Part shown: piece after piece, positions 44,269 through 49,474 of the stretch
How the letters are laid out: each line of letters begins with the position of its first letter
Position numbering within the stretch: the stretch's first letter is position 1
IMG/VR virus record: IMGVR_UViG_3300008448_008004
Span: 29,829-93,828 of that record
Source of the DNA: a virus
DNA length: 64,000 bases
Direction: 5' to 3' (one strand)
Position numbers and translations under genes: made by a program
The notes under the pieces: model-generated
Databases searched by the model: none
Seen by the model: only the letters and a program-made list of their open reading frames with translations
Told to the model about the DNA's origin: nothing

Positions 44269-46566
44269 ATGCCAACTTATAATAGATTAACCGACAGGTC
44301 CTTAGCCACAGGAGTAACTCTTAGTGATTTAATTCACATAGTAATAACAGGTGATACCTCACAAAACGCCGCTGGCTCTTCATACAAAGCAACAATTCAA
44401 CAATTAGCAAACGCAATTACAGGAGCAACAGGTAGTGGTTCATCCGGTACAAGCGGGTCAAACGGAACCTCAGGTTCAAGTGGGAGTAGTGGTTCTTCAG
44501 GTTCAAGTGGGAGTAGTGGTTCTTCAGGTACTAATGGCACAAGTGGTACTAGTGGAGGTGGAAGTGGTGAATATCTTCCTTTATCAGGAGGTACTGTAAC
44601 AGGAAACACATTTTTTGGAATATTATCAGGTATTACTTTAGACCAAGGAAACGCCAGGATTGGTATTGGAACTACCTCACCATCAAACACTTTGGAGTTG
44701 TATAATGGTGCATCAGTTTTGAATTATAGAAACTCTGTTGGAGGTGTTTTGGATATTTCAGGTTCAACCAACTTGCCAAGAATGTCTGCAACAATTTCTC
44801 CATCGGGAGCCAACCCTGATGCATCTGTGGGGTTTGGTATGAGGGCTTGGACAGATGTTACATATCCGGGATACGGAGCAGTCGGAGATGGACATTTGTA
44901 TGCATCCAATGATGCAAATGGTTTGAATATAATAAATAGACAAGGAAGTTCCACACAAGATTATGTCAGATTTTATGCAGGTCAAGATGCTAATGGAACA
45001 ACACCTGATGTTCACATACAAGGTAGTGGAACAACAAGAGGTTTTGTTGGATTTGGTACAATAAATCCTACGGAAAAAGTTGATGTTATAGGTAGACTTA
45101 AAACTGAAAACTTTCAAATGACTTCAGGGGCCACCGCAGGATATGTTTTAACATCAGATGCAAGTGGTTATGCAAGTTGGTCCCCTATAACTGGTGTCAC
45201 AGGAACATCGGGAACAAATGGTACTGATGGTTCTAGTGGTAGTTCAGGTTTATCAGGAACTAATGGTACAAGTGGTAGTTCAGGTTCATCAGGTATTGAT
45301 GGAACATCGGGAACAAATGGTACTAGTGGTACAAATGGTACATCTGGTAGTAGTGGGACAAGCGGTTCTTCAGGGTCGAGTGGTATGGATGGTATTTTTA
45401 GTGGTGGAACAATTTCAGCAACTACAACATTTTTAAGTGGGATTACTGCAAATACAATTTCAACAAACACAATCGGAGCTTCTGCAAATTGCGTCACTGA
45501 TTTGTATGTAACGAACATACATTCATGTTCACCATTATATATTAATCCATTTAATGAAGGAAACGTAATATTTGGTCAGAGTAATCAAATGGTACTTGAC
45601 TTAACAAACAAATATGTAGGGTTTAACAAAGTGCCGAGTTTTGCATTTGATTTTGCCTCCACAAATGGAACTTTTGCATTCAAACCATCCGTTTTTAACA
45701 GTGCGATGCAAATTTCAGGCACTAGTACACAATTTACATCCAAAGTTTTTGTTGCGGGTAATACATCATTAAGTATTGGTACTTACGGGGAACAATACCC
45801 AACTGGTGGGGGTTTTGTCTCAGGAGATACCTTTATAACTAATAGTGTAAATAACAATAGTTTACAAATTATTACACTATCAGGAACAACAGGTACAAAA
45901 GATGTTAAATTTAAGGTTGGAAGTGCCGCAACCAATAGTTCAGATTTATTTATTAAAGGTTCGGGTAGTACAAGAGGTTATGTTGGTATTGGTACAGAAA
46001 GTCCATTAGCTCTTTTACATGTGAGTGGAAATACTATCATAAGTTCAGGTTTAAGTGCAACGACATTTTCGGCAACAACAGTAACATCACCAACAATATC
46101 CTCAACAACTATTTCTGCTACAACAATAGTTTTAAGTGGTACTAATATAACATCATCGTGGACATCATTCACACCATCTTGGTCATCTAATGGTGGAACA
46201 CAACCAACAATAGGTAATGGTTCTATTACAGGAGCATACCAAGTTATTGGTAAAACTTGTTTTTATAGAGGTAAATTATTATTTGGAACGACAACATCAG
46301 GAGGAACTGGCGCTTGGGAAATCTCATTACCTTTTGTTGCGGCATCTGCGGAAGGAGTTCAATTACCTGTTTCAATTTTGGACCAAGGTATTGATTGGTA
46401 TCAAGGATTAATGAATGGGGCTTACGGAGGTTTTACAACTAAAAGTTCAATACTCGCCCCATCGACAGCATCCATAGGTAAAAGCTCAGGTTTGGATGCG
46501 ACTTTACCATTCGCTTGGGGGGATGGGGATTATTTTGTATGGAATGGTTCATATGAGATTGCTTAA
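44269..46566 (+). CDS. Tail fibre / receptor-binding protein with Gly-X-Y (Ser/Thr) tracts
   Basis: YLPLSGGTVTG, repeated (I/V)G(I/F)GT..P motifs, GYVLTSDASG..SW, and a C-terminal W...TP...GNG...G.Y..IGK...SLP...G.YE fibre head. Confidence 0.75.
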   Translation: MPTYNRLTDRSLATGVTLSDLIHIVITGDTSQNAAGSSYKATIQQLANAITGATGSGSSGTSGSNGTSGSSGSSGSSGSSGSSGSSGTNGTSGTSGGGSGEYLPLSGGTVTGNTFFGILSGITLDQGNARIGIGTTSPSNTLELYNGASVLNYRNSVGGVLDISGSTNLPRMSATISPSGANPDASVGFGMRAWTDVTYPGYGAVGDGHLYASNDANGLNIINRQGSSTQDYVRFYAGQDANGTTPDVHIQGSGTTRGFVGFGTINPTEKVDVIGRLKTENFQMTSGATAGYVLTSDASGYASWSPITGVTGTSGTNGTDGSSGSSGLSGTNGTSGSSGSSGIDGTSGTNGTSGTNGTSGSSGTSGSSGSSGMDGIFSGGTISATTTFLSGITANTISTNTIGASANCVTDLYVTNIHSCSPLYINPFNEGNVIFGQSNQMVLDLTNKYVGFNKVPSFAFDFASTNGTFAFKPSVFNSAMQISGTSTQFTSKVFVAGNTSLSIGTYGEQYPTGGGFVSGDTFITNSVNNNSLQIITLSGTTGTKDVKFKVGSAATNSSDLFIKGSGSTRGYVGIGTESPLALLHVSGNTIISSGLSATTFSATTVTSPTISSTTISATTIVLSGTNITSSWTSFTPSWSSNGGTQPTIGNGSITGAYQVIGKTCFYRGKLLFGTTTSGGTGAWEISLPFVAASAEGVQLPVSILDQGIDWYQGLMNGAYGGFTTKSSILAPSTASIGKSSGLDATLPFAWGDGDYFVWNGSYEIA
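44437..44553 (+). repeat. 13 Gly-X-Y triplets (GSS/GTS/GSN/GTN), including a 27-bp tandem duplication
   Basis: TCAGGTTCAAGTGGGAGTAGTGGTTCT at 44470 and 44497. Confidence 0.9.
45193..45390 (+). repeat. 22 Gly-X-Y triplets (mostly GTS/GTN/GSS)
   Basis: Direct translation from GVT to GMD. Confidence 0.9.
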
Positions 46567-46612
46567 TATTTATTTACGTGATAGATTACATATCTTCTAA
46601 CAAAAGAAGATA

Positions 46613-47849: not shown

Positions 47850-47869
47850 TAATAAAGTTTCACACATAA

Positions 47870-49474
47870 ATGGCTGATGTAATTTTTAGTAGTTGTTGTT
47901 ATAACCTTGTATATAGTGCTACAAGTTTTCCCGTTAGTGCTTCAGTTAATGAGGTATACTCTATTGAAAATGACCCAAATATGCCAAATGGTTGTTATAC
48001 CGTGGTCAGTGGAGTTACGGGCACATCTATAACATTTGGGATATCTGCAATAGGTACATTAGTAACCGGATGCACGCATCCATCATGTTTAGAATGTTGT
48101 TCAAGTACGTTATGTATTAGTGCACCAACAACTTTATATAGTGGATACGGAGGAACTTATATAATACAAGGAGGGTATAATTCTTACCCATATTGGACTG
48201 GAGGAACATCTAGCACTGGATATTTACATTATAACGGAACTTATTGGTGTTTAAGTAGTTCATTAGGTGGTTCTTGTATATTTTTTGGGTCCAATCCAAC
48301 TTTTTCAGTATGTCCTGATTTAGATGAAACGGTAATGACAACAGGTGCTTGTATTCCAACACCAACACCATATGACCCTTGTTCAGTTTTAGATTTTGAT
48401 GTGTTATTGGAGTGTAATATCCCAACCCCAACACCTACACCGACACCTACTCCAACCCCAACACCTACACCGACACCTACTCCAACTGCGAATATATGTA
48501 GTGCTTTTACTGCAAATATCACATATCAGACAGCAACACCAACTCCTACTCCAACACCGACACCAACCCCAACCCCTACACCAACTGTTACACCATCTGC
48601 AGATACCGTGACGTTTATTGTAGATAATGGAAACTTTGTTTGTGCGACGGTTAAAGAATTGGTTGATTGTTATGATGGAACGAAATATTATGTTGCAGGA
48701 CCATTATTATTAACAGGTTCAACAGCAACAACTGTTACAACAACAGGAACAACAATCTATGGTGTAATAAATAATGACATTAGATGTGCTACATATACAC
48801 AAAATGTTAACGGAAGTGCAAACGCATCAATTCAATACATAATTTCAGCATATACAGGATATTGTTCGGTTTCATGTGTTACTCCAACACCAACACCTAC
48901 ACCGACGCCAACACCTACACCGACTCCTACACCGACTCCTACACCTACACCTACATTTGCACCTGGAACTGTGTTTGTATTTACATCTTGTACTTCTAAT
49001 AGTATGATAACACAAACGGCTTATCCACCAACAAATTTAACTATTGGTAATGTGTTAAAAACATTGTCAGGTGATTGTTATAGTTATGTTGGAAATTATG
49101 TTGGATATGTTGCTCCGTCAGGTTATGTGGTTGCAAACGTAAATGAGTTTACAGCAACTACTGCCACGACATACACTGATTGCGTAGATTGTTTAACTGT
49201 GACTGCTGCTACTACAACTTATAACACATGGAGAGGAAGTTTTGGATTCGCCTTGAACTGTCCTGTTTGTCAAATAACTGACTTTGGTAAGAAAAATACT
49301 TTCTATACCTCTAACTTAATAAGTGAAATTGCTACGGATGTTTATGTCTTTAGTGATTCATCATTAACTAAACCAATAACAGAAGATTACTTACAATACG
49401 GAAACTTTATCTATAAAGTTGATGTAAGTGGTAAATTAACACAATTCTGTACTGTAAACGGAAACTGTAAATAA
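47870..49474 (+). CDS. Mucin-like Cys-rich virion protein with three long Pro-Thr tracts
   Basis: (PT)11, (TP)8 and (TP)12 separate small Cys modules; no signal peptide. Confidence 0.7.
   Translation: MADVIFSSCCYNLVYSATSFPVSASVNEVYSIENDPNMPNGCYTVVSGVTGTSITFGISAIGTLVTGCTHPSCLECCSSTLCISAPTTLYSGYGGTYIIQGGYNSYPYWTGGTSSTGYLHYNGTYWCLSSSLGGSCIFFGSNPTFSVCPDLDETVMTTGACIPTPTPYDPCSVLDFDVLLECNIPTPTPTPTPTPTPTPTPTPTPTANICSAFTANITYQTATPTPTPTPTPTPTPTPTVTPSADTVTFIVDNGNFVCATVKELVDCYDGTKYYVAGPLLLTGSTATTVTTTGTTIYGVINNDIRCATYTQNVNGSANASIQYIISAYTGYCSVSCVTPTPTPTPTPTPTPTPTPTPTPTPTFAPGTVFVFTSCTSNSMITQTAYPPTNLTIGNVLKTLSGDCYSYVGNYVGYVAPSGYVVANVNEFTATTATTYTDCVDCLTVTAATTTYNTWRGSFGFALNCPVCQITDFGKKNTFYTSNLISEIATDVYVFSDSSLTKPITEDYLQYGNFIYKVDVSGKLTQFCTVNGNCK
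48422..48487 (+). repeat. (Pro-Thr)11, with an exact 30-bp tandem duplication
   Basis: CCAACCCCAACACCTACACCGACACCTACT at 48422 and 48452. Confidence 0.95.
48536..48598 (+). repeat. (Thr-Pro)8-TVTPS tract
   Basis: Direct translation. Confidence 0.95.
48881..48955 (+). repeat. (Thr-Pro)12-T tract
   Basis: Direct translation. Confidence 0.95.

Follow-up and report, generated by a model that had tools for sequence, protein, structure and literature searches.

What does a single enzyme gene do amid the baseplate and fibre genes of a virus? The question is raised by a 64,000-nucleotide stretch of viral DNA (the window; positions 29829-93828 of the 93.8-kb IMG/VR viral contig IMGVR_UViG_3300008448_008004, CheckV completeness 23%), in which an open reading frame (ORF) at 46613-47812 lies between the gene for a collagen-like fibre protein and the gene for a protein with tracts of alternating Pro and Thr (PT tracts). 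An earlier note on this DNA had given the three ORFs at the positions confirmed here (Table 1). It had read the middle one as a candidate glycosyltransferase (GT) of family GT60 that places N-acetylglucosamine (GlcNAc) on its two neighbours and so builds a mucin-like coat on the virion. The analysis described here makes the identity of the enzyme secure, and we favour, with moderate confidence, the reading that it glycosylates virion proteins on Pro-Thr linkers, based on the precedent of its family and on its association with genes for PT-tract proteins. The fibre on the other side of the gene is not a conserved partner.

The profile PF11397 ("GlcNAc", CAZy GT60) matches the ORF over its full length (E 1.1e-67; 229.5 bits, cut-off 21), in an alignment that jumps profile positions ~45-98, and matches no other ORF on the whole contig. 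The PHROGs family phrog_24687, annotated as 'glycosyltransferase', also covers the full length of the enzyme, and the NCBIfam profiles returned nothing for it. The GT60/PF11397 assignment, proposed earlier from the letters, is thus confirmed by the profile search. Proteins of the PF11397 type are numerous, with more than 4,000 cluster representatives and occurrences in many bacterial genomes. Some members of the representative library (P0121-P0132) are proteins of 900-2,461 aa in which the GT60-like domain is repeated in tandem two to five times. The closest cellular homologues (L241-L252) are found in Verrucomicrobiales genomes and metagenome-assembled genomes, at 49-56% identity over the full length, including the C-terminal domain described below.

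No PDB chain matched the enzyme by sequence, even at E 1, and a comparison of folds was therefore needed. The AlphaFold model, built on 40 homologues, has a mean predicted local distance difference test (pLDDT) score of 95. When it was searched against the PDB with Foldseek, the first ~50 matches were all polypeptide N-acetylgalactosamine (GalNAc) transferases. In VIA-align, 28 GalNAc-transferase (GalNAc-T) entries score Z 20.1-23.3, with 259-285 residues aligned at a root-mean-square deviation (rmsd) of 3.1-3.7 Å, whereas generic GT-A enzymes score lower, at Z 19.4 or less. The kinship with mucin-initiating polypeptide GalNAc-transferases that the earlier note had suggested is therefore borne out at the level of structure.

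A phylogeny of GT-A enzymes has identified a DxH motif in place of DxD as specific to GT27 and GT60, sister families that both O-glycosylate Ser/Thr of polypeptides, and has placed GT60 in prokaryotes and protists only (PMC7185993). The phage enzyme has such a motif at D89-S90-H91; across 40 homologues (35-87% identity) D89, H91 and H222 never vary, and S90 hardly does. When residue numbers are shifted as in the structural alignment with GalNAc-T2 (model residues 1-319 to chain residues 136-440), D89 and H91 would correspond to D224 and H226 of that enzyme, and H222, which by the same shift falls within 2 residues of H359, is likely the third metal ligand.

A fold and motif of the polypeptide-transferase type argue against DNA glycosylation, that is, hypermodification of hydroxymethyl-pyrimidines as protection from restriction, which we regard as extremely unlikely here. 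Phage glycosyltransferases are often assigned this role in the literature, and the sets of multiple GTs in large aquatic phages and cyanophages have been read as serving cell-surface or DNA modification (PMC12801897, PMC12619734). In one distant relative, a neighbour of the enzyme gene also has a weak, sub-threshold match to a TET-associated glycosyltransferase. However, the enzyme gene lies among late structural genes, and a thymidylate-synthase-family gene, taken as a proxy for hydroxymethyl-pyrimidine DNA, is present in relatives with and without the enzyme; it therefore does not track the enzyme and is uninformative.

The catalytic domain spans approximately residues 1-320, and most structural alignments stop near its end. 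It is followed by a C-terminal beta domain (residues ~325-397), modelled as a small beta sandwich, which is variable among homologues and missing in some; an ESM Atlas search with residues 318-399 gave no usable match. At the N terminus, the first beta (Rossmann) strand of the model begins at residue 3, and there is no hydrophobic segment before it. Without an N-terminal anchor the enzyme is therefore cytoplasmic, like Gnt1 and unlike Golgi enzymes, in agreement with the cytoplasmic action assumed in the earlier note. The likeness to soluble Gnt1 also raises the possibility of Skp1-type chemistry, in which Pro residues of PT or collagen-like tracts would be hydroxylated and GlcNAc then added to hydroxyproline. 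Two distant relatives (G005 and G007) do encode PF13640 2-oxoglutarate-Fe(II) oxygenases. Yet PF13640, the sole oxygenase family searched for, is found neither in this contig nor in G011, a close relative of 99% completeness where enzyme and PT protein are likewise paired, and the triplets of the fibre contain no Pro. We consider this chemistry very unlikely.

If a polypeptide is the acceptor, the candidate closest at hand is the Cys-rich protein encoded immediately downstream, in which small beta domains are joined by PT linkers. All three of the tracts described earlier, (PT)11, (TP)8 and (TP)12, are found in it. Its longest alternating PT run reaches 24 residues, whereas 2000 shuffled versions of the protein never gave one longer than 8. 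Three to four synonymous codons are used in the tracts for each of Pro and Thr; because synonymous codons are mixed, the tracts are not simple slippage repeats, and an origin as slippage-prone DNA repeats was dropped. In 24 orthologues at 48-89% identity the three linkers hold their position between the Cys-rich beta domains and remain almost pure PT. The domains of the predicted model have pLDDT values of 75-90 and the linkers values below 50, so the linkers are predicted to be disordered. The protein belongs to no Pfam or PHROG family, its NCBIfam matches are of low complexity only and far below threshold, and a Foldseek search of its model against the PDB found nothing at E 0.001 or better. 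The protein and its 24 orthologues share ~20 invariant Cys in the small beta domains. So many would be odd in a protein that folds in the cytoplasm, and they could form metal sites or disulfides made after lysis.

Two other proteins in the window contain PT tracts that the earlier note had listed. The tract at 40953 is exactly as described, a (TP)9 in a protein of the structural block that may be a further acceptor. The tract given at 6313, in a protein encoded after the baseplate-hub gene, proved to be a short P[TS] tract, and its pure (PT)4 core lies ~30 nt away.

The pairing of enzyme and PT tracts recurs among relatives. Viral loci with a close relative of the enzyme (58 in all, reduced to 39 non-redundant loci at 97% identity) encode a protein with at least 10 PT dipeptides within three ORFs downstream of the enzyme in 23 of the 39 cases. 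Three other arrangements (L029, L051 and L056) have non-homologous PT-rich proteins, with 72, 57, 34 and 30 dipeptides, directly adjoining the enzyme. Only two of 300 ORFs in G011 have PT tracts, and these are located one and two ORFs from its single PF11397 gene. Relatives were also collected independently of the enzyme, with a conserved gene of 735 aa (52043-54250) as anchor; where the anchor is at least 56% identical, enzyme and PT protein are both present in all relatives but L074, L075 and L083. One apparent case of a PT protein without the enzyme (L087) was rejected, since the enzyme sits just beyond the flank with one extra gene between. Among bacterial loci with a homologue, 16 of 80 have a PT-tract ORF within 8 kb, a count that has no proper background control. 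Examples come from Saprospiraceae, Verrucomicrobiales and Alteromonadaceae, including a Saprospiraceae protein of 673 aa with nine PT tracts, 377 nt from the enzyme homologue. The link between enzyme and PT tracts is real but not absolute. The co-occurrence that had been predicted is non-random, as the 23 of 39 loci and G011 demonstrate, and it is not strict, given L074, L075, L083 and the distant relatives.

In many relatives a conserved ORF of ~265 aa overlaps the stop of the GT60-like gene (for example, L004:9194-9991 and L017:9191-10003) and often stands between the enzyme and the PT protein. It occurs in fibre-module and GT-cluster contexts alike, is absent from this window, and has no Pfam or NCBIfam family; it may encode a partner enzyme.

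The genes around the enzyme are most likely those of a virion. Judging from its gene content, the source is a large, uncultured T4-like myophage, with relatives whose complete genomes measure ~290-320 kb. Directly upstream of the window start are genes for a tail sheath and a family B polymerase, and the window itself encodes a baseplate hub, gp25-like and gp6-like wedge proteins, a ribonucleotide reductase, a DnaB-like helicase, and a UvsX-like recombinase. There follow, between 28.4 and 54.3 kb, co-oriented large ORFs in which the recognised families, besides the GT60-like ORF and the collagen-like fibre, are SprB/PKD-type repeats. Their position after gp6 suggests that they most likely encode outer baseplate and fibre proteins. 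No enzyme family other than that of ORF 46613-47812 was found by Pfam or PHROGs among ORFs 26086-54250, in keeping with the earlier description of a lone enzyme gene in a structural block. A megablast search of the 5.2-kb stretch holding the three genes against deposited phages gave no match. SprB repeats (PF13573) are present in two proteins of the block (41375-43669 and 50414-52012). Such repeats are typical of Bacteroidota gliding adhesins and may be a weak hint to host or ecology. At L064:5423-6511, an Fe/Mn superoxide dismutase with an extra N-terminal region of ~150 aa adjoins an SNF2-type helicase.

The enzyme gene also shares an upstream motif with its neighbours. The earlier note had recorded TATTTAT before the enzyme at 46567, and it is there. 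In the whole window the motif shows no overall excess (46 copies against 47.6 expected), but 12 of the 30 plus-strand copies precede a start codon by no more than 60 nt, and such stretches make up 3.4% of the window (p ~1e-10). These copies are 12-46 nt from the start codon and mostly precede structural genes, including those for the fibre, the enzyme, and the PT protein; examples are at 1221, 3049, 26074, 28445, 37079, 44254, 46567, 47842, 52031 and 54888. TATTTAT is a candidate promoter element, shared by these genes and probably late. Together with the gp25/gp6-like start of the block, the enrichment of the motif upholds the earlier placement of the enzyme among baseplate and fibre genes, its neighbours being preceded by the same promoter-like element.

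Table 1 Features of the enzyme locus, its surroundings in the window, and the glycan operon of the same contig
Feature	Position	Strand	Size or type	Evidence or remark
GT60-like (PF11397) soluble GT-A glycosyltransferase	46613..47812	+	399 aa	Profile, model, fold alignment
D89-S90-H91 codons, DxH metal-binding motif	46877..46885	+		Homologue alignment
H222 codon, likely third metal ligand	47276..47278	+		Homologue alignment
Cys-rich protein, small beta domains joined by Pro-Thr linkers	47870..49474	+	534 aa	Candidate acceptor
(PT)11 linker	48422..48487	+	aa 185-206	
(TP)8 linker	48536..48583	+	aa 223-238	
(TP)12 linker	48881..48952	+	aa 338-361	
Collagen-like fibre protein	44269..46566	+	765 aa	PF01391 E 4.5e-12
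Gly-X-Y run 1	44437..44562	+	14 triplets, GSS/GTS type	
Gly-X-Y run 2	45193..45399	+	23 triplets, GTS/GSS/GTN type	
Structural-block protein with (TP)9 tract	38004..41366	+	1120 aa	Tract at 40953-41006; possible further acceptor
Protein after baseplate-hub gene, short P[TS] tract	3070..9189	+	2039 aa	(PT)4 core at 6343-6366
TATTTAT promoter-like motif	44254..44260	+		15 nt before fibre gene
TATTTAT promoter-like motif	46567..46573	+		46 nt before glycosyltransferase gene
TATTTAT promoter-like motif	47842..47848	+		28 nt before PT-protein gene
Baseplate hub gene	331-1089			
gp25-like baseplate wedge gene	26086-26550			
gp6-like baseplate wedge gene	26552-28390			
Glycan operon	L063:1146-8570	-		Same contig, 21-29 kb before window start

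From the observed family, fold, catalytic motif, gene position, and association with PT tracts we infer a donor, an acceptor, a timing and a benefit. The enzyme, a soluble, metal-dependent GT-A transferase, is probably produced late in the cytoplasm of the host, at the same time as the proteins of baseplate and fibres. It would most likely move an N-acetylhexosamine (HexNAc; GlcNAc by family precedent) from a uridine diphosphate (UDP) sugar onto Thr, and perhaps Ser, of the disordered PT linkers. The acceptors would be the adjacent 534-aa protein and other PT-bearing virion proteins, modified before or during assembly. The mucin-like coat put forward earlier, with stiffer linkers, resistance to proteases or grazers, or tuned adhesion as its benefits, is likewise conjecture.

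Further glycan genes on the contig could provide for extension of the first sugar. The minus-strand operon before the window (L063) encodes a class III aminotransferase, a cytidine monophosphate (CMP)-sugar cytidylyltransferase, an S-adenosylmethionine methyltransferase and an MptE/Maf-like protein, as well as a GT11-GT10 fusion (548 aa), a GT2, and a two-domain GT2-like and GT4 protein. Other relatives have GT2, GT11 and GT8-like genes directly after the GT60-like gene. A multi-step glycan made by the transferases of the contig is plausible from this gene content, and the first sugar could be extended by the GT2, GT2-like/GT4, GT11-GT10, Maf/MptE-like, and CMP-sugar activating proteins. A more ambitious proposal is that these ~300-kb freshwater-type phages build true mucin-like O-glycans on baseplate and fibre linkers in the bacterial cytoplasm and extend them to a fucosylated, sialic-acid-like coat. 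This would involve GT60-type addition of HexNAc to the Thr of (PT)n tracts, followed by the action of the GT2, the GT11-GT10 fucosyltransferase and the nonulosonic-acid genes (CMP-sugar and Maf/MptE-like); we regard it as distinctly doubtful. If glycosylation of the linkers is correct, mucin-type initiation chemistry, thought to be typical of eukaryotic secretory pathways, would work in the bacterial cytoplasm on virus particles, and a defined enzyme-acceptor pair would be at hand. It would also mean a new interpretation of the structural proteomes of abundant jumbo phages in the environment, and of their host range and particle stability.

Several observations weigh against PT linkers as the acceptor. 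PT linkers occur widely, and in many bacterial proteins they bear no glycan. The 534-aa protein is a candidate virion component by its gene position only. L074, L075 and L083 keep the PT protein (18, 6 and 18 dipeptides) without PF11397, so that the absence of the GT with retention of PT tracts, which the earlier note had named as contrary to its proposal, occurs in part, in three contigs that are each ~10% complete. The genes flanking the empty slot are 69-74% identical to those of enzyme-bearing siblings, in which the same slot holds two deeply divergent alleles of the enzyme (~41% identical). The slot itself (~5200-5800) consists in these three contigs of ~600 bp of AT-rich DNA (26-28% GC) with no gene remnant. 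In G005, G006, G007 and G009, whose anchor gene is ~50% identical, the enzyme belongs to a glycosyltransferase cluster remote from the fibre block and adjoins GT25 and HtrL/YibB-type genes, which are usually linked to lipopolysaccharide (LPS). PT tracts in the distant relatives are short, though several are 1-9 ORFs away from the enzyme; in G005, which carries the enzyme, they reach at most 4 dipeptides, and PT tracts are therefore not a universal acceptor. A common tendency to occur in fibre modules may be all that brings PT tracts and the enzyme together.

The variable slot and its divergent alleles would suit an alternative in which the adjacency reflects an accessory cassette in a permissive position of the fibre module. 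The PT tracts would then be plain flexible linkers, and phage proteins would be glycosylated elsewhere, on collagen-like Gly-Ser/Thr stalks or on SprB-repeat proteins. The proteins around the enzyme are 24-30% Ser+Thr, G005 combines the enzyme and its short tracts with large collagen-like proteins, and the variable C-terminal domain of the enzyme, lost in some homologues, also fits. We nevertheless consider this quite unlikely, since the linkers stay pure PT over 48-89% identity, a PT protein accompanies the enzyme far more often than a collagen-like one does (23 against 8 of the 39 loci), and collagen-like giants exist without the enzyme in G008, a contig that is 88% complete.

The fibre itself deserves description here. 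Besides its collagen match it hits PHROG tail-fibre and collagen-like minor tail families, whereas models of the Scl/Lcl collagen-like adhesins stay below their cut-offs. The Ser/Thr-rich triplets noted earlier are present and uninterrupted in both runs, with mostly Ser/Thr at X and mostly Ser at Y; their number is 37 (14 + 23) and not 35. As a conserved partner of the enzyme, however, the fibre does not hold up. Because the gene upstream of the enzyme varies and is collagen-like in only 8 of the 39 non-redundant loci, and because G008, without the enzyme on its 88%-complete contig, encodes collagen-like proteins with as many as 314 GSS/GTS triplets, this half of the earlier picture is unsupported. 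Giant collagen-like proteins are found in several relatives (G011:181308-190067, G008:755-4960 and G005:266391-271444), among them one 2,919 aa long, in which the triplet runs number 339, 57 and 259, and one of 1,401 aa with 314 triplets, and the contigs of two relatives end within such genes.

The LPS-type neighbourhood in the distant relatives bears on a different alternative, namely that the acceptor is not a protein. The enzyme would then carry out one step in the phage-directed making or remodelling of a glycan on the host surface (LPS or lipooligosaccharide (LOS), capsule, or a lipid-linked intermediate), with superinfection exclusion or a change of receptor as possible purposes. GT25 is annotated as 'LPS biosynthesis', the CMP-sugar cytidylyltransferase, GT2, GT4, and GT11-GT10 genes of our contig are typical of LOS and capsule loci, and the published interpretation of multi-GT sets in aquatic phages as tools of surface modification agrees with this. 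On the other side, the close structural matches are all polypeptide transferases and score well above polysaccharide GT-A enzymes, and characterised GT60 activities are on polypeptides only (PMC7185993, PMC3769586). In addition, the gene lies among virion genes with the same promoter-like motif, and PT-tract proteins gather near the enzyme in several independent arrangements. We judge a non-protein acceptor unlikely, while still giving it real weight.

Cultured phages offer evidence in both directions. Among 50,697 deposited phage records, full-length homologues of the enzyme occur only in XacN1, Xoo-sp13, CM1 and RAS14, jumbo phages of Xanthomonas (the first two) and Stenotrophomonas (the last two), at 37-40% identity. 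The XacN1 homologue is ORF334 (39% identical). XacN1 virions contain at least two Schiff-positive glycoprotein bands, for which phage transferases have been suggested as makers, but the stained bands have not been linked to ORF334 (PMC5852040). The homologues of XacN1 and Xoo-sp13 adjoin a carbamoyltransferase and replication genes and not a fibre module; both points count against linker glycosylation, and the carbamoyltransferase next to the XacN1 gene also fits a non-protein acceptor. Literature searches for GT60 or PF11397 with phage returned no description of the enzyme-PT pairing, and no paper was found that gives prokaryotic PF11397 members a function.

Phage virion glycosylation has so far been documented mainly in mycobacteriophages. 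According to the description in a citing paper, the glycans of these phages are located at the C-termini of capsid and tail-tube subunits (Freeman et al. 2023, cited in PMC12619734), and phage-encoded transferases are believed to act within the cytoplasm on structural proteins of the same phage (PMC12619734), as would be the case for the enzyme described here. As far as that description allows a comparison, the candidate acceptors differ, being internal PT linkers of baseplate and fibre-block proteins. Among GT27 enzymes the best match is human GalNAc-T2 (PDB 6e7i/2ffu; Z 23.3, 272 residues, rmsd 3.2 Å), and the phage enzyme appears to share with this family the DxH and His metal triad at matching positions of the model. 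The sequence identity to GT27 is only 12-18%, and the phage enzyme is not a type II membrane protein and lacks a ricin-type lectin domain, having no Pfam lectin match and a beta sandwich at residues 325-397. The protist GT60 enzymes TcOGNT-2, DdGnt2 and Gnt1 are like it in PF11397, GT-A fold and DxH motif. TcOGNT-2 and DdGnt2 transfer alpha-GlcNAc onto Thr of Thr-rich mucin peptides and need Mn2+, and DdGnt2 is membrane-bound (PMC3769586). The phage enzyme is soluble like Gnt1, without the membrane anchor or Golgi context of DdGnt2 and TcOGNT-2, and differs from all three in being phage-encoded and in its extra C-terminal beta domain. The known acceptors of the protist enzymes are Thr-rich, Pro-flanked mucin peptides, and the protein encoded next to the phage enzyme has similar PT linkers.

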